54,050 bases of DNA from Nitrosomonas sp. (GTDB taxonomy: Bacteria; Pseudomonadota; Gammaproteobacteria; Burkholderiales; Nitrosomonadaceae): contig JAUXRH010000214.1 in the NCBI GenBank assembly GCA_030682075.1, positions 1 through 54,050 on the forward strand, written 5' to 3'. The notes below the pieces were generated by a model. The model saw only the letters and a program-made list of their open reading frames with translations. It had not been told where the DNA came from and ran no database searches. Below, piece after piece: positions 19,297 through 29,652 of the stretch; position 1 is the stretch's first letter, and each line of letters begins with the position of its first letter. The position numbers and the translations under genes were made by a program.

Positions 19297-19446
19297 CAAA
19301 TTATGTAACATAAATTCAATTGGTTGGAATTGGTTTTCTGAAACATCCCGGTTGAAAACAGTAGCCGGATGTCAGTAATATCGAATTTTGATATAATTGA
19401 GCCGAGCGTTTCAGCTTTTAATTATCCATATTATTTGGAACTAAAA

Positions 19447-21690
19447 ATGTCAAAGGAAAAAGTGGCAAAAACAGAAGCAGCAGATGCAACTAAAGTAACG
19501 AATACCAAAAAGAATTCTCTAACAGCAAAAAAAGAGAAAGATAGATTTGATAACGTTGAAATGGCCGCTAAAAAAACAACAAAGCCAGTTGATAAAATGA
19601 AAATAAAAACCTTAACTGAAAAAGTTAAGGCAACAAAAGAAATCTCAAAAAATGAGTCTAGTCGTGTTGCGGAGATTGCTAAAGTAGTGATTGCTGCCAA
19701 GGAAAATGAGACACTCTCCGAAACAAAAGCTAAAACATCCAAGAAGGTTAAAACTAAAGCGAAATCGAAATCATCAAAAGAACAAGGAAATGATACTGAA
19801 GTAGCTTCTCTTGCGCCGCAGGATATTGAGGCACGACGGATGCGTCTGAAAAAACTAATTATGCAAGGTAAGGAGCGTGGTTATTTAACTTATGCTGAAA
19901 TTAACGATCATCTTCCAGATGATATGTTGGATGCCGAGCAGATAGAAGGCATCATCAGTATGATTAATGACATGGGCATCTCTGTATATGATGAAGCGCC
20001 CGATGCAGAGGCACTGTTAATGTCTGATGCGACTACAACAGTAGCCGATGAAGATGTCGCAGAAGAAGCGGAAGCAGCCCTTTCAACGGTTGATTCTGAG
20101 TTTGGGCGTACTACTGACCCAGTGCGTATGTACATGCGTGAAATGGGGTCGGTCGGTTTGCTGACACGTGAGAGTGAAATTGAGATTGCAAAGCGGATAG
20201 AAGGCGGCTTGCGGCATATGATACAAGCTATTTCAGCGTGTCCGACTATTATTGTTGGGATTCTTGATTTGGCGGCTGAGGTTGAAAGAGATGCCTTGCG
20301 AATTGATGAATTGGTGGATGGACTGCTTGACTCTAACCTGGAAGATGAGATTAACGAACAAGTTATTAATGAATCGTTGGGATCAGATCTGGAAGTTGAT
20401 GATTTGGAAGGTGACGATGACGATGATGAAAATGAAAGTGAGAATGGCCTTGCTATTGCAAACGCAAATTTACTGAAATTAAAAAATGATGCATTGGAGC
20501 GTTTTGCAGTCATTCGTCAAATCCATAATGAAATGCAAGAAATCCTGGATAAGGAAGGATCATCCGGAAAAAGATACAAAGAATTACAGGAAAATATTTC
20601 AGCAGAACTCATGGTTATTCGATTCTCTGCTAAAATGGTTGAGAAGTTGTGTAATACTCAGCGTGGATTAGTACATAATGTTCGCGAGTATGAACGTAAG
20701 ATACTTCACTTGTGTGTATCTAAGGTAGGGATGCCGAAGAATCATTTCATCAAGACATTTCCAGGTAATGAAACGAATTTAGACTGGGTGACACTGGAAA
20801 ATGAATCTAATAAACCTTATAGTCAAGCACTGCAACATTATCGACCTGCAATAATGGAGCAACAGCAAAATCTGTTGTCGCTGAAAGCGAAAATTGGAAT
20901 TCCGATCAAGGATCTGAAGGAAATTAATCGCAGAATGACAACTGGTGAAGCAAAGACACGTCGAGCAAAACGTGAAATGACGGAAGCCAATTTGCGACTG
21001 GTCATTTCAATTGCTAAGAAATATACTAATCGTGGCCTGCAGTTCCTTGACTTGATCCAGGAAGGTAATATTGGTTTGATGAAAGCTGTAGATAAGTTTG
21101 AATATCGGCGTGGTTACAAGTTTTCTACTTATGCCACTTGGTGGATCCGCCAGGCAATCACGCGGTCTATTGCGGATCAGGCGCGTACCATACGTATTCC
21201 AGTGCATATGATCGAAACGATTAATAAAATGAATCGTATCTCGCGTCAGATCCTTCAGGAAACAGGGCAAGAGCCGGAACCGGCAGTATTGGCAGAAAGA
21301 ATGGAAATGCCAGAAGAGAAGATACGGAAAATTCTCAAAATCTCCAAAGAACCCATTTCAATGGAAACCCCAATTGGAGATGATGAGGATTCGCATCTTG
21401 GAGATTTTATAGAAGATTCAGCGACCATGGCCCCTGCAGATGCAGCCGTGTACGCTAGCTTGAGAGGTGTTACCAAGGATATACTTGACTCACTAACGCC
21501 ACGTGAAGCAAAAGTGCTACGTATGCGTTTTGGTATAGAAATGAACACCGATCATACCTTGGAAGAAGTTGGAAAGCAGTTTGATGTCACACGTGAGCGT
21601 ATCCGTCAGATTGAAGCAAAAGCGTTACGTAAATTGCGTCATCCAGCACGATCAGAGCGATTACGCAGTTTTCTGGATACGGGGAACTAA
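19447..21690 (+). CDS. rpoD: RNA polymerase sigma factor RpoD
   Basis: Regions 1.1-4 present ([49 protein letters not shown]). Start at ATG 19447. Confidence 0.98.
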
Positions 21691-21789: not shown

Positions 21790-21870
<81 letters not shown>

Positions 21871-21973: not shown

Positions 21974-22315
21974 ATGGAAAAAATTACAGTTAAAAACACG
22001 GAAGGAAGAAGTCTCAGATTCACCGGCGAACTAATCGCCAATGTGGAAAGCAGCAGCAACAATGCACATCCAGACTATTCAGGAAGTGTTGGCCATTGGC
22101 AGGAGTTGTACTTGTGGCGCACAGCTAGAGGCAAATTCGTTGGGCAGACCATCAATTTCACCCAATGGCAGGGTTCGCGTGATAGTTACACAGCCAAGGT
22201 TTGTGGCACCGTGGAAGAAGTCGTAGAGTTTTTTGGAAGCGGCTGGCTAGCTACTGAACTTTACGAAGCGGCCGATATTGATACTTCAATTAATTTGGAT
22301 GAGGCGGCGGCTTAA
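21974..22315 (+). CDS. Hypothetical island protein (113 aa)
   Basis: GGAG RBS and a clean ORF; the only clear plus-strand gene in the island. Confidence 0.75.
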   Translation: MEKITVKNTEGRSLRFTGELIANVESSSNNAHPDYSGSVGHWQELYLWRTARGKFVGQTINFTQWQGSRDSYTAKVCGTVEEVVEFFGSGWLATELYEAADIDTSINLDEAAA

Positions 22316-22474
22316 TTAGCCGGGCTTGTTTTTGTTCTAAAGCCGCCGGTTATACGAGACGTCGAAGGTGGCCGTGCTTGGTTCGAGGTGGTGGCACGCT
22401 AATAATTGACCTTGAAAACCACCCGCCAAAGTGGGGGGAATTTGTCTTGTTTTGGCGGATTTTATTATATTGCC

Positions 22475-22483
22475 TGTGGATAA
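22475..22483 (-). promoter_or_regulatory. Perfect DnaA box (TTATCCACA) inside the island
   Basis: TGTGGATAA on the + strand; single copy. Confidence 0.45.
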
Positions 22484-22525: not shown

Positions 22526-22644
22526 GGTTATAACGGTTATAACCTCTTTCCGTCTTCACGCGCACGGGCAGAATTGTCGTTAACCGGTACTTCGTGAGTA
22601 CCGGTTATTTCCATCTTCACGCGCACGGGCAAGTTTTTTGTCGT
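22526..22644. repeat. Two 24-bp direct repeats, each preceded by a different palindrome
   Basis: TTTCCRTCTTCACGCGCACGGGCA at 22547-22570 and 22608-22631; palindromes at 22526-22544 and 22581-22607. Confidence 0.85.
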
Positions 22645-23052
22645 GGAACCCCTTCGCCATAAGTGGATTTCTTCGGGCGGCCTGTTCATCCATAACAAAA
22701 GCTAATGATTTAGAAGCGAACCATAAAACTTTTTTTAGGGATGTTTATGAAAATAATTGCCAAGTGCGGTACTTTGGCAGCCAATCCCCAGAGAATTTGA
22801 CCGCCCCACTCCTCACCAGCAAACGCTAGCCATTGCGGTAACGTCACCGGGTTGGTACCAACCCATCACCGCCAAAAGACATATCTCCGATTTTCGATAT
22901 CTAGCGTTTTTGCGCGGTCTGCATTGCCCGCCCGGTCAATCATCACCAGGAGTACCTTTGGGCACCAACCGATAAATTTATTTTTTTCCTTCAGGTTTTT
23001 AAATCGCACGACATTTTCATGTTAAAAACCTTTCACCAGAAAAGATACCCGT

Positions 23053-23561: not shown

Positions 23562-23846
23562 TTTCCCGTTTTTTCTTCTAAAAATTTTCCCGCTTTATTC
23601 CCGCTCCCCTCTTATAGGGGGAGCGGGAATCGCGGGAAGACCCTGCAAGTTCCCGTTTCGGGACATTTCGGGACATTTCGGGAAATGGGGGAAAATGGCT
23701 GTAACCCACGTGTTTAATAGCTTTAACGGCGTTAGAAGCAATAACCTTGTTCATTGTGTGGTTTCCCGTTTTCTTGTCCCGTTTTGTCCCGTTTGGGTTT
23801 TTCCCGTTTCGGGACAAAACGGGACATTTCGGGACATTTCGGGAAA
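23562..23846. repeat. Iteron cluster, the putative replication origin of the island
   Basis: Tandem 10-bp TTTCGGGACA units (23656-23685, ~23807-23845), inverted TGTCCCGTTT units, and a TTCCCGCTCCCC..GGGGAGCGGGAA hairpin, directly downstream of the primase-helicase. Confidence 0.8.
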
Positions 23847-23848
23847 GG

Positions 23849-25858
23849 TCATTTGCACCACAAAAAACCATCTTCATGGCACAATAAACCTCGGTCGATT
23901 AGCCCACGAATTGCAGCCTGAGAGCGTTCGGTTTGTCTCCTGGGGTCACATATCAACTTGGTGCGGGTTTGGTCAATTGCAGCCTCCAACGTGATGCACG
24001 GCTTCCCTTCGGGCAGGGTGTCGGGCGCGCCTTCTGGGCGGGTAATCCCGGCCTTGCGGAATATTTCCCCCAGTACGTCCCAGACCACCCGTTGATTCCC
24101 GGACTTCGGCGGCATCACTTTTTTGATACCGTCCGCAATGACTTCCAGCGGATGCAGTACGCAAGAGGTAACCGGTTCGCCGTCTGTGTCTGTGCCAATC
24201 TCCACTACATCCAGCTTGAACGGATGCGCTTCCCCGTCTTCGCCATCTTTCGATTTCGCAATAAGCCACTCCCGGCGGTCACCATCACGGCGTACCTCAA
24301 CAGCGGCATCAAGCGCGGCATGGAGGCTACTATGTCCGCGTAGACCTTTGGTGGCGTCTTTGCCAGTGTGATGCACCAGCAAAACCAGCCCACCTGTCAA
24401 CGTTTGCAGTTGCTTGGCGGCGGCAATTATCAGGCCCATGCTTTTGGAATCATTTTCATCCGTACCCGGCGCGGCCCGGTTCAGGGTATCCAGCACCACC
24501 ACTTCAGTATCTTGACCGCTCACTCGAATTGCTTTGAACAAGTCGTTAACGTCCGCTTCATCCAACAGGTTAAACGGCTGCACCAAATAACGAATATTGG
24601 ACGAGCTAACTCCCCATCTACGGGCGGCGGTGTGGTAGGCAGTCACCCGGCCAGCCAACCCGGATTCACCCTCAAGACAGCAATAAACGATGTTGCAAGG
24701 CTTTGTTTTACATCCAAACCAATCGCGCCCTTCAGCCACCGCCTGCAAAGCATCCAGCACCAGAAAACTTTTACCGGAACCGCTAGGCCCATACAGCGCG
24801 GCCAGACCCGTTGTTGGCAGAACTCCTTTGATACGCCATTGCAGCGGGGGCAGTTTGCCAAGGTCGTCGTCAGACAGAAGTTTGTAACGCACAGGCGGGC
24901 TCAGGGGGTGTTCCAGCAAGGCAGTCAATACACCAGCACCGTGTTCCAATAGATAATCGCTCACGTCGTAGTTTTGAGGCTTGTCAGCAGGCAGCTCAAC
25001 CCACGGGGCTGCAACATCAGCAGCAATTTTGGCGGCCTTCGCTTCCAAGCCTTTGTCTGGAACAATCACTAACCGGGCGGCAGGGCACTTGTCACGCAGC
25101 ACCTTGGTAACAGTTGCCATGCGCCCGCTGCCAAAACAAACTACGGCGGCGGCTCCCGTTGCTTTGTTCGCTGCCCATGCTTGGCCAATACCTTCCACAA
25201 TATAAACTTTTTGCGCGGATGCGACGTTGCCCACGGTAAAAAATCCATCATTGAACGACGCACCCGGTAAGTTCTTTTTTTGCCCCACCAGCGGAATAAA
25301 TTGAAGCGTCAAAAGTGTTTCGCCATCGGGCGCAAAACAAGGAATCACCAGCGCGTCGGTCATATCAACGCCGTCGATTCGCAGCGTTTCAGCGGTTTTT
25401 GGGTAAGTTCGCAAGCCGTCTGGACTGCCTTGCTTGCGGTCGATGTACGGATGACTTTGCGTTGCTGGAACGCAGTTTCCCCAAATGGCGGCGGCGGTGG
25501 AATTTTTGACCTGTTTAACGGGCGTTTGCGGCGCTTGTTTTGTACGGGGAATAGGACAGTCAGGCTGTAATCTTTCTTTGGTGCGTAACTTAGCGGCAGG
25601 GTCTTGCCAACCTTGCTCAAAAGCCAGGCCAAATAATGTTGCGGGAGTCACCGGCCCGGACGCGCTAAACGATTTCCAAACCGTGCGGCACTCACTTTCA
25701 CTAGCATAATTCCCGCCGCTTGCGCTCCAGCGATGGAACTCGTCAAACGCCACCCCGGCAGACTTTGCGCCCATCCCAGCCCGCACCCATTCTTCACGCG
25801 AACACCCGGCATCAAGATAAAGAAGCGCACTTGTGGCGCGCTCAATCTCATTGCTCAT
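23849..25858 (-). CDS. Primase-helicase fusion (PriCT-2, Toprim, AAA_25/RepA-type helicase)
   Basis: REEWVRAGM..FHRWS, YIVEGIG..VPDKG..DVSD, Walker A GPSGSGKS, VVLDTLNR and LVHHTGK. Start at ATG 25858, overlapping the upstream gene's stop. Confidence 0.9.
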   Translation of the reverse strand: MSNEIERATSALLYLDAGCSREEWVRAGMGAKSAGVAFDEFHRWSASGGNYASESECRTVWKSFSASGPVTPATLFGLAFEQGWQDPAAKLRTKERLQPDCPIPRTKQAPQTPVKQVKNSTAAAIWGNCVPATQSHPYIDRKQGSPDGLRTYPKTAETLRIDGVDMTDALVIPCFAPDGETLLTLQFIPLVGQKKNLPGASFNDGFFTVGNVASAQKVYIVEGIGQAWAANKATGAAAVVCFGSGRMATVTKVLRDKCPAARLVIVPDKGLEAKAAKIAADVAAPWVELPADKPQNYDVSDYLLEHGAGVLTALLEHPLSPPVRYKLLSDDDLGKLPPLQWRIKGVLPTTGLAALYGPSGSGKSFLVLDALQAVAEGRDWFGCKTKPCNIVYCCLEGESGLAGRVTAYHTAARRWGVSSSNIRYLVQPFNLLDEADVNDLFKAIRVSGQDTEVVVLDTLNRAAPGTDENDSKSMGLIIAAAKQLQTLTGGLVLLVHHTGKDATKGLRGHSSLHAALDAAVEVRRDGDRREWLIAKSKDGEDGEAHPFKLDVVEIGTDTDGEPVTSCVLHPLEVIADGIKKVMPPKSGNQRVVWDVLGEIFRKAGITRPEGAPDTLPEGKPCITLEAAIDQTRTKLICDPRRQTERSQAAIRGLIDRGLLCHEDGFLWCK

Positions 25859-26217: not shown

Positions 26218-26418
26218 TCAGGCGCCCCCTGCCAGCAACTTGCGAATTTCGGCTACACTCCATGCCAACCGGCCAGATATACGCACCGGGCGCATAGCTC
26301 CACAATCACGAAACGCCCACATACGCAAGGTTTGAGATTTTCTGTTGAGGTAGAAAGCGGCTTCCCCTGTGGGGACTGTTGGGCGGGTTACCTCTTCAAG
26401 CGGTAGGTATTTAGACAT
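26218..26418 (-). CDS. AlpA/excisionase-like HTH DNA-binding protein
   Basis: 66 aa; EAAFYLNRKSQTLRMWA...RPVRISGRLAW..AEIR. Confidence 0.85.
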   Translation of the reverse strand: MSKYLPLEEVTRPTVPTGEAAFYLNRKSQTLRMWAFRDCGAMRPVRISGRLAWSVAEIRKLLAGGA

Positions 26419-27194: not shown

Positions 27195-27476
27195 TCAGTG
27201 ATGCTTCACCCATTCCCGTAGTGCATCATTGATGCGTGTCTGCCAGCCGTTGCCTGTGGCCTTGAATTGCTCCAGTATCTCTACATCCAAGCGAAGTGTT
27301 ACTTGCTCTTTTGTACCGCTCCCCGGTGGCCTTCCACGCCCTCGCTTGAACTGGCTTAACTCTGCACCAGTCAGCGGCAAGTTATCCGGGTCGGTTAGTG
27401 CAGCAGCGGTAATTTGCGCATCCTCTTCCGGGGTCGGTAATATCAGCGTCCGGCCTGATTTAGTTTTGATTTGCAT
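27195..27476 (-). CDS. brnA: BrnA-family antitoxin (orphan)
   Basis: RGRP..KEQVTLRLD.EILEQFKATG.GWQTRINDALR motif. Confidence 0.9.
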   Translation of the reverse strand: MQIKTKSGRTLILPTPEEDAQITAAALTDPDNLPLTGAELSQFKRGRGRPPGSGTKEQVTLRLDVEILEQFKATGNGWQTRINDALREWVKHH

Positions 27477-27492
27477 AATCCATAACCTCTCT
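27460..27492 (-). pseudogene. 3' remnant of a brnT toxin gene
   Basis: A frame reading REVMDYANQN* overlaps the brnA start, resembling the RE..Y C-terminus and overlap typical of BrnT. Confidence 0.5.
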
Positions 27493-27500
27493 ACAAACGG

Positions 27501-27812
27501 TCAGGCGGCTATTGGCGCAGGTTGAACGTGCATCGGCTCGGCTTTGAATCGCTGCTCAACTTGCCACATATCATAGGCGCATTGCTCGGCCAGCCACGCG
27601 TCAGCATGACCACCCCGTTCTTTACCTAGCCATGCTTCGAGGCGTAACGCCATTTCTGGTGATATAGCAGCGCGTCCATTCAGCACGCGGGATAGCGTCA
27701 CACGGGCAACGCCAAGTTGCTTTGCGGCTTCGGTCACAGACAGGCCCAGCGCGGGCAACACGTCATCACGCAAGGTTAAACCGGGGTGCGGCGGATTGAA
27801 CATGCAGGTCAT
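27501..27812 (-). CDS. higA: HigA-family antitoxin (XRE HTH)
   Basis: MFNPPHPG, LSVTEAAKQLGVARVTLSRVLNG, ISPEMALRL and W..Q.AYD motifs. Confidence 0.93.
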   Translation of the reverse strand: MTCMFNPPHPGLTLRDDVLPALGLSVTEAAKQLGVARVTLSRVLNGRAAISPEMALRLEAWLGKERGGHADAWLAEQCAYDMWQVEQRFKAEPMHVQPAPIAA

Positions 27813-27826
27813 AGTTGAGTCTCCTT

Positions 27827-28105
27827 TTAGTGATAATTCTGATAGTCCACCAGCACGGCATCAGTGCCCTTAAACGTGAACGTCATGCGCCAATTGCCGC
27901 TAACCCATATCGAAAAATGCCCAGCAAGTCCGCCAGATAATGGATGCAGATTCCACCCCGGTATGTTCATGTAGCTAGGGTCTCTAGCCACATTGAGGCG
28001 CAGCAACTGCCGCTTTAGTCGTGGAGCATGAGCGGCTTGAATGCCCGCCGTGCTTCCCTTCCTGAAAAAGGCTTTCAACCCCTTGTGGCGGAATGTCTTA
28101 ATCAT
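27827..28105 (-). CDS. higB: HigB-family (RelE/ParE superfamily) toxin
   Basis: MIKTFRHKGL, PGWNLHPL.G, SIWVSGNWRMTF and VDYQNYH; toxin-first order. Confidence 0.93.
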   Translation of the reverse strand: MIKTFRHKGLKAFFRKGSTAGIQAAHAPRLKRQLLRLNVARDPSYMNIPGWNLHPLSGGLAGHFSIWVSGNWRMTFTFKGTDAVLVDYQNYH

Positions 28106-28141: not shown

Positions 28142-29455
28142 TCAACTTTCCACTACACGCAGCACACCCGGCTTTTCCGCTGGCACAAACTCAATCCCAG
28201 CTTGTTCCAATATCCATGCTTCTATTTTGACGTGCCACATCCGCAACAGGTCAAGCGGGCGGCGGATATAGTGTTGCTCCCTCACCCCTTGCGGCTTATG
28301 GCCTTGTATTTGTGCAGCGATACCGACGGGAACCTCTATCCACTCACACAGGCTGGCAAAGCTACGGCGCAGACCGTGCAGGGTCACGGCAAGACCGGCA
28401 ACGGCACAGGCCTTATCATGAGCAATACGCGGCTCCACCAAGTGCCCACTGGCAGCGGTAGGGCTTGAGAATACCCATTCATTGCGGCGTGGTAATCCGG
28501 CCAGCAGGTGCGCCACATAAGGCGTTAACGGGATGACGCGCAAACCTTCCACCTTGTCTTTAATTGTCATGCTGTTCCACTGAAAATCTACATCAGCCCA
28601 ACGAACGGTTATCAATTCGTTAGGTCTTGCACCAGTCAATAACATGGCTTGCAGGTAGGCGGAAATAACCGGGTTACCGATTTGTTTTACGGCGGCGAAC
28701 CATGCAGGCAACTGTTCACGTTGGATGGCGTCATTTTTCTTTTTTGGAACGCCTAAATGTTTTTTGACCTCCTTATGTTGCGCGGCATTGTCAGTAACGA
28801 TTGTTTTGTAGATGGGATGCGCGACGCACCAGTTCAGGAACGTACTTAGCAGGGTTCGGGCATTGCGGGCGCGGGCTGGTCGTTTCGACCCTTCCACCTT
28901 GGCCCATGCTGCCATTAGTTCAGTGGTCAGGTCGACAAGGCGTACTGTTGCCAATGAGGTAAGCGTTCCGGGTTCAGTTAACTTGTGGCTTCGAGTTCTT
29001 CTCTCGCCACCCGCCTGCATGGCGCGGGTATGGTCGTGTAGATGAAGGGCGCCCCATGCGGGCTTCATGGCTGAAACATACTCATGCCATGCCATGCCTA
29101 CCGTCATCGTCTCCCGTGCTCGCTGTGCCACCATTGCGGCTAATTCGGATACCTTGGCGGCTTCCTGTTCAGCTTCCACTTGGCGCGGGTCTGTGCCCTG
29201 GTCAACCATCATTTTGAGGCGTGTTGCTTCTTCCTGTGCTTTTTTAATTGTCCAGGTAAAAGTGTCGCCAATCGTTATACGCAGGGTCTTTCCGTGCAGT
29301 CTCGTTTCAAAGATATAGCTTTTTGCACCCGCGTTTGTTACCCGTAAGCCTAAGCCGGGTGTTTTTGCATCAAAAAAAAGGGCTTGTTTTTTTTCTGGGT
29401 CGCAACGTGCTCCAGCAATAACGCCGCTTGTGAAGTTTTTTTTGTTCATTTTCAT
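28142..29455 (-). CDS. int: Tyrosine integrase with N-terminal arm-binding domain
   Basis: PGLGLRV...KSYIF N-domain; catalytic TGAR, K, HGLRRS, QGH and HY residues. Confidence 0.95.
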   Translation of the reverse strand: MKMNKKNFTSGVIAGARCDPEKKQALFFDAKTPGLGLRVTNAGAKSYIFETRLHGKTLRITIGDTFTWTIKKAQEEATRLKMMVDQGTDPRQVEAEQEAAKVSELAAMVAQRARETMTVGMAWHEYVSAMKPAWGALHLHDHTRAMQAGGERRTRSHKLTEPGTLTSLATVRLVDLTTELMAAWAKVEGSKRPARARNARTLLSTFLNWCVAHPIYKTIVTDNAAQHKEVKKHLGVPKKKNDAIQREQLPAWFAAVKQIGNPVISAYLQAMLLTGARPNELITVRWADVDFQWNSMTIKDKVEGLRVIPLTPYVAHLLAGLPRRNEWVFSSPTAASGHLVEPRIAHDKACAVAGLAVTLHGLRRSFASLCEWIEVPVGIAAQIQGHKPQGVREQHYIRRPLDLLRMWHVKIEAWILEQAGIEFVPAEKPGVLRVVES

Positions 29456-29598: not shown

Positions 29599-29652
29599 GG
29601 GGACTCATAATCCCTTGGTCACTGGTTCGAGTCCAGTCAGACCCACCAAAAA
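29599..29652 (+). repeat. att core, duplicated 3' part of tRNA-Ile
   Basis: Identical to 21817-21870; lacks the tRNA 5' acceptor strand and D arm. Confidence 0.95.

Follow-up and report, generated by a model that had tools for sequence, protein, structure and literature searches.

The window analyzed here, the whole stretch of 54,050 nucleotides from the Nitrosomonas contig JAUXRH010000214.1, contains a 7.8-kb island at tRNA-Met that is bounded by att repeats and carries PICI-like genes. The island is likely a small DNA element that parasitizes phages, and a 731-bp stretch free of genes lies toward its attL end. Its features, in window coordinates, are the following.

21817-21870, plus strand: attL, a 54-bp direct repeat that is the 3′ part of tRNA-Met (gene 21790-21866)
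21974-22315, plus strand: orf113, function unassigned, with look-alikes that are mostly phage proteins
22442-22552, minus strand: captured piece of a phage parB-like gene (last HTH codons, palindrome A, linker, DnaA box)
22475-22483, minus strand: presumed DnaA box within the captured flank, also present in L153, L024, L030 (1 mismatch), and the intact phage genes L224 and L225
22526-22544, no strand: palindrome A, to which ParB-like proteins whose recognition helix reads Q-P-F are predicted to bind
22547-22570, plus strand: 24-bp repeat, copy 1, core of a likely tandem duplication of ~65 bp
22581-22607, no strand: palindrome B, no source gene found
22608-22631, plus strand: 24-bp repeat, copy 2, with no palindrome after it
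22720-22800, minus strand: likely packaging signal, a motif found near P27-type small-terminase genes of related elements
22836-22849, no strand: near-perfect palindrome, probable second ParB-type site, one base from a site in L153 and with its core in phage gene L296
22849-22864, no strand: palindrome C, ~35 bp behind the presumed lambda-type motif, no source gene found
22890-22960, minus strand: likely cos site; in L172 and L030 this motif precedes the Nu1-type small-terminase genes by 100-110 bp
23585-23846, no strand: likely own origin, 10-bp iterons in both orientations plus a palindromic core, directly 3′ of the primase gene
23849-25855, minus strand: primase-helicase (PriCT_2, Toprim_3, AAA_25)
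26218-26418, minus strand: AlpA/excisionase-like small protein (weak match to phrog_66, E = 0.007)
27195-28105, minus strand: cargo, comprising a BrnA-type antitoxin, a HigA-like antitoxin, and a HigB-like toxin
28142-29455, minus strand: tyrosine integrase with arm-binding domain
29599-29652, plus strand: attR, a 54-bp repeat identical to attL

All annotated island genes lie on the minus strand except orf113, which has six homologs, matches Atlas clusters of hypothetical proteins, and gave no Pfam, PHROG, or PADLOC match and no relative among viral contigs. The island ORFs include no terS match and no phage structural or lysis genes, and the 10 island proteins had no PADLOC match. In the cargo region (27195-28105), the BrnA-type antitoxin gene follows the HigBA pair without a BrnT partner. 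The iterons and palindromic core of the likely origin are conserved in L022, L023, and L026. Depth was read from contigs, in which a circular form or packaging ends are invisible; in run X1 the island stood at 393 against 381 and 361 for its flanks, corresponding to about one integrated copy, and in the second run that holds it the values were 95-103 against 92 and 87. These two runs belong to the only sequencing study that contains the island, which may be its source. Outside the island, the rpoD frame (19369-21690) has ~155 residues before region 1.1.

According to the available portions of PMC6092414 and PMC6739421, Gram-negative PICIs such as EcCICFT073 have in common with this island att repeats, an integrase, an AlpA-like gene, one-way transcription, a primase with an iteron origin just 3′ of it, the lack of structural genes and of terS, and more than one cos-like site. 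Here, att repeats are found with an integrase, the primase is followed by a likely origin with two sets of iterons, and the one-way genes fit into 7.8 kb, below about 15 kb. The comparison covers sequence features, and in these the primase, of AAA_25 type, differs from that of the PICIs compared.

In the gene-free stretch the earlier note had described a noncoding mini-array, with a fixed repeat alternating with different palindromes. Every feature it named is present: palindromes A (22526-22544; arms and spacer 9-1-9), B (22581-22607; 11-5-11), and C (22849-22864; 8-0-8), two repeat copies that differ by one mismatch (23/24 identical), TTGTCGT after both copies, and at 22475-22483 what we take, from the general consensus, to be a DnaA box. 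Three palindromes with arms of at least 8 in 731 bp were reached by none of 300 dinucleotide shuffles and none of 1169 host windows, and the longest repeat in 60 shuffles was 16 bp, compared to 24 bp observed. Palindrome C lies 220 bp from the repeat/palindrome cluster, beside a different motif. The stretch folds better than its shuffles (z about −2.3), a signal due to hairpin B; the 24-bp repeat alone folds worse than most shuffles, and the cassette has no Rfam match. One weak promoter-like match, directed into the array, lies at 22442-22471; this is no more than chance would give (2.1 expected).

The repeat is likely a by-product of local tandem duplication and not the scaffold of an array, because the likeness between its units continues beyond 24 bp: in a local alignment of 22531-22594 with 22599-22656, 48 of 68 columns are identical, with indels, and the extended likeness takes in bases of palindromes A and B. 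There are two copies only, and the second is followed by no palindrome. The notion of a fixed repeat framing variable palindromes is not supported. Within the collections searched, the repeat is private to this island. Its 22-mer had no match in viral contigs; the 41 matches of a 16-mer and the 10 metagenome matches of a 21-mer fell mostly in coding sequence, none with flanking palindromes. When 2-3 mismatches were allowed, 20 of 189 family genomes contained it, at 22 places altogether and never in a cassette (control matches, 14 genomes), and 401 order genomes, phages, and plasmids gave no meaningful match. The expectation that related islands would keep the repeat failed as well: among 69 loci around related integrases, primases, or motifs, searched with up to 5 mismatches, the sole match was a chance one inside an integrase gene. 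What would mark a CRISPR-like array was likewise missing from these searches, namely a conserved repeat common to related loci with variable spacers, and associated effector genes or a known RNA family. Two further candidates were rejected. A pattern scan for the repeat as an HK97-type cosB or origin core gave one coding match, and as a decayed run of recognition-helix codons the repeat scored −4, not significant, against at least 10 for all 247 true helices.

Palindrome A, judged from its flanking sequence, is a site that was captured along with part of a phage ParB-like gene, and it is the only palindrome firmly traced in this island. We ran the HTH-plus-linker peptides of the 150 best homologs against the whole 2.73-Mb assembly; the best match of all 150 queries was 22552-22442, which shares 21 of 37 residues with P0026. 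Its E value was 1e-5, for one query, compared to 0.005 for the runner-up. The flank of palindrome A is identical to the L112 gene at 27 of 29 nt, and codons of the parB-like gene lie on both sides of the palindrome. No in-frame start codon lies ahead of the captured piece and an in-frame stop codon precedes it, so that the piece is kept as DNA. Palindrome A itself has seven exact viral matches: in L112 it lies in frame directly behind the HTH of the ParB-like gene, and the other six are intergenic or clustered repeats, not parB genes; the ancestry of the window's copy is therefore fixed by the flank match. In one 49.8-kb phage record (L109:2500-2750), palindrome A forms a tandem-repeat cluster around a palindromic core, which looks like origin use. 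The L112 protein belongs to phrog_1033 (ParB-like; E = 1e-21), its predicted structure (pLDDT 84.6) is similar to those of Noc, ParB, and KorB (E = 6e-8 to 2e-5), and three records in the phage collection match it. An intact helper parB-like gene was absent from this assembly, and the 121 genus genomes held two partial matches only.

The earlier note had taken the cassette for a set of collected protein-binding sites whose palindromes would recur near DNA-binding genes. Palindrome A bears this out through the parB-like gene of L112, and related islands collect sites of the same family (see below), but B and C could not be traced in this way. Palindrome B has four viral matches, of which the annotated ones are not parB genes, and its phage matches are at chance level; it occurs in 1 of 400 class genomes, inside coding sequence (versus 4 control matches), and a 53-aa frame over it has no homolog. 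In phage contig L113, its inner arms recur as an origin-like core located behind an AAA_25 primase. Palindrome C gave chance-level matches only. The two cos-like motifs are, from their sequence neighborhoods, likely packaging signals. The one at 22720-22800, presumably HK97-type, has counterparts close to the P27-type terS genes of L006, L007, and L153, and the one at 22890-22960, which we assume to be lambda-type, aligns more closely with gene-free copies in L029, L008, and L012 than with the copies ahead of the Nu1-type genes. Two cos sites on one PICI (EcCICFT073) are already known, as the available text of PMC6092414 and PMC6739421 describes. Gene-free clusters of several cos-like motifs and short repeats were also seen at L008:1500-1800 and L012:1100-1530 (G032); they include an 8-2-8 palindrome with outer arms similar to those of B. 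At L030:6490-6980 (G070), scattered CTATAAC repeats, possible terminase binding elements, lie between the Nu1-type terS gene and the captured flank.

We compared palindrome A with the sites of the phage family from which it derives. The family counts 16,655 cluster representatives at E up to 0.001; 158 loci were fetched, yielding 138 distinct scorable genes, and a phrog_1033 family search, which listed mainly apparent chromosomal parB genes, was left out. Of the 138 genes, 71 show a perfect palindrome with arms of at least 8 in the 110 bp that follow the recognition helix, versus 0/138, 0/138, and 2/137 in control windows, and 57 of 138 genes have no palindrome of arms ≥7 within 200 bp. There are at least a dozen site classes. 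The palindrome-A class occurs four times in 903 kb of family loci, always 37-43 bp behind the helix start and in three of the four cases with a QPF helix. The site is single copy in 77 of 79 loci, as judged from the surrounding 3-4 kb, and each of five gene-carrying phage records, including the 40.9-kb L112 record, holds one exact copy; a dispersed operator array of KorB type, with many copies on the element that encodes the protein, was not seen among them. Two or three palindromes are already present in 11 of the 138 intact phage genes, with a maximum of 3 per 200 bp. The intact genes L226, L228, L298, and P0088 carry two or three tandem palindromes of different classes, as if older sites persist after a switch of specificity.

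Co-variation was assessed in 79 genes with a site (arms ≥7), giving 2235 pairs that are <60% identical in the N-terminal domain. With 0 matches in the helix triplet, half-sites agree at 1.7 of 6 bases, and with 3 matches at 4.4; this likeness tracks HTH positions 124 and 133-136 (partial r, 0.17-0.31; 79 genes, alignment-based). Positions 138-143, equally variable and nearer to the site, reach an r of at most 0.09. Because the signal is nearly absent at these nearer positions, the pattern, in pairs that are not independent, favors direct readout over mere linkage, and both fold and co-variation fit the predicted binding of the palindrome by a ParB-fold HTH protein. A helicase lies behind the parB-like gene in 89 of 126 loci with enough flank, usually with a primase next, and the 29 neighbor proteins chosen from 20 loci match helicase, primase, methylase, nucleases, or terminase, with no ParA among them. 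The presence of a site is unrelated to that of the helicase (Fisher P = 0.44), and across the family the sequence behind the site shows no enrichment of DnaA boxes (4/137 after versus 16/138 before). The missing palindromes in 57 of 138 genes, together with these two null results, count against reading the site as a simple origin. Since the source gene heads a helicase-primase module, the borrowing of partition proteins proposed by the earlier note is unlikely.

Capture recurs in related islands. L157 carries the whole HTH-coding piece with a site of the palindrome-A class (33/58 residues identical to L112), and L153 has ten palindromes (arms ≥6) of several classes in 450 bp, the first accompanied by helix codons and one identical to palindrome A. 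The observed captures are all centered on the site and lack the ParB N-terminal part. L024 and L030 share the flank and DnaA box of this window but have different palindromes, and their flank aligns with the intact phage gene L224. A constant part with varied palindromes does therefore exist in related islands, as the earlier note expected, but the constant scaffold is the linker of a phage gene and not the repeat. We found 62 loci with an integrase match, 29 of them closed by att repeats (L024 and L030 are outside the 29). With a vocabulary of 65 site cores, the closed islands hold 10 known-type sites in 252 kb, compared to 1 in 158 kb of flank; these sites fall in only 5 of the 29 islands, and in two or more of those the match looks fortuitous. 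The window is a modest example, with one traced site and one at 22836-22849 that, on its likeness to known sites, is probably a second ParB-type site, and L153 is the stronger test case for the idea of a key ring of palindromes.

Three further arrangements in these islands deserve mention. The L153 array (L153:3929-4379; G132), in which several of the palindromes are of ParB type, is contained in an open frame of 173 codons with an HTH gene on one side and an O-like initiator on the other, on an island with capsid-protein and terS genes. In L157:6998-7402 (G047), an ATG-started 134-codon frame fuses the complete phage HTH, together with its site, to a coiled-coil tail that belongs to the island; it could encode an HTH-only mimic protein and has two partial homologs only. 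Finally, L129:2094, L144:4608, L149:98, and L157:3825 carry two classes of ParB-type palindromes at one homologous spot, in an apparent island primase gene.

A predicted ParB-like site among likely packaging signals means that the island would catch replication proteins of its helper phage. We give a probability of roughly 0.5 to the reading that the island docks or titrates its helper's predicted ParB-like replication protein. Each phage protein, acting as a dimer, would bind the one palindrome that its gene contains, like ParB on parS. The phage may load its helicase-primase at that site, or the site may be an operator for autoregulation. The helper's single site heads its replication module, and an induced island would hold many copies, so that the island's sites could draw the protein off the helper and slow helper replication; an island site might also lend the helper's enzymes a second entry point. 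Changes of specificity among helpers would explain why islands keep several palindrome types. Against this reading, the island need not borrow from the helper, as it encodes a primase and likely has an origin of its own. Also against it are that palindrome A alone is firmly traced here and occurs outside parB genes too, that few closed related islands carry known-type sites, that many phage genes have no clear palindrome, that sites do not go together with the helicase and DnaA boxes are not enriched behind them, and that the assembly yielded no intact helper gene. More tentatively, and with the balance somewhat against it, a large and unstudied phage family may start replication with a ParB-like clamp at one in-gene palindrome through a code of four to five residues; satellites would then collect such palindromes on a key ring, next to multiple cos sites, so as to hijack helpers of many specificities or starve them, and the spread of classes would be the record of an arms race.

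Rather unlikely, though the most serious rival, is that the sites are neutral scraps: helper DNA picked up by recombination at the packaging end, with palindromes that survive because inverted repeats self-correct and a repeat made by slipped duplication. Such an origin is compatible with the 24 of 29 related closed islands that have no known-type sites, with a duplication unique to this island, and with the 11 of 138 intact genes that hold two or three palindromes, since one capture can then bring several; P0026, the closest protein, also has odd ends and may itself be a relic. It is harder to reconcile with captures that are all site centered and without the ParB N-terminal part, and with the roughly 10 sites in 450 bp of L153 against at most 3 per 200 bp in 138 intact genes. 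We consider it improbable that the site is a sensor through which the helper's ParB-like protein switches island transcription or excision on or off, as KorB does on its operators. The fold matches KorB, activators of Gram-negative PICIs are given as unknown in the available part of PMC6092414, and the weak promoter-like match points into the array; that match is nevertheless at chance level, and the integrase starts >6.9 kb away from the site, which is located at the opposite end of the island.

About as improbable, or slightly more so, is that palindromes B and C and the repeat are packaging or origin hardware independent of ParB-like proteins, that is, small-terminase binding elements or a decayed iteron origin. 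For B and C on their own this may well hold, given the position of C ~35 bp behind the lambda-type motif and the origin-like inner arms of B in L113, and palindrome A does form iteron-like clusters in L109. As an account of the whole cassette, it leaves the parB-like codons on both sides of A unexplained, and the origin pattern built on the repeat gave only one chance match in coding sequence. Very improbable is a cassette that borrows a ParAB system or is transcribed as repeat-spacer RNA, despite the parS-like size and symmetry of palindrome A and the folding of the stretch. Against it stand the helicase-primase module behind the source gene, the integrated state of the island at about one copy, and a folding signal that is due to hairpin B and not to the repeat; Rfam gave no match in the cassette and PADLOC none among the 10 island proteins.

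KorB-OB pairs a ParB-fold HTH protein with a palindromic site, a few residues setting the specificity. In ParB-parS and Noc-NBS, too, a few residues of the HTH region set specificity, as the available text of PMC7383237 reports, and these systems share with the phage family the ParB fold with its HTH, the palindromic site, and the small number of specificity residues. Unlike them, the phage family has one site inside its own gene, a helicase and primase behind it, and at least a dozen classes, and here the site sits on a different element from the protein gene. The closest known logic, by analogy and as far as the accessible part of PMC8136818 describes it, is oriT mimicry in staphylococcal mobilizable plasmids (pWBG749 family, SmpO), in which the parasite likewise carries its helper's cis site; there, helper subtypes are set by a small DNA-binding protein whose specificity is switched by single substitutions. 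The mimicked element in that case is a conjugative origin of demonstrated function, whereas in our case a palindrome within the gene of a phage ParB-like protein is copied, with a function that we infer. Captured phage ParB-type sites, of which this island has one traced example, are not mentioned for PICIs in the portions of PMC6092414 and PMC6739421 available. Orphan ParB-CTPase-fold proteins have been surveyed on prophages and phages as repurposed away from segregation (PMC12704722, PMC13229309); the string "palindrom" is absent from the main texts of these surveys, which in their accessible parts mention no in-gene site, helicase-primase link, or satellite capture. In the open literature, covered by titles and abstract openings and with subscription journals largely absent, we found no description of in-gene palindromes of phage ParB-like genes or of their capture by satellites.

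These results provide a predicted, readable protein-DNA code for a very large family of orphan ParB-like proteins and link that family to a helicase-primase module, a question left open in the available text of PMC12704722. If captured sites serve as docks or decoys, they would be a protein-free way to parasitize or block phages, and the sites that a satellite carries would predict its helper.
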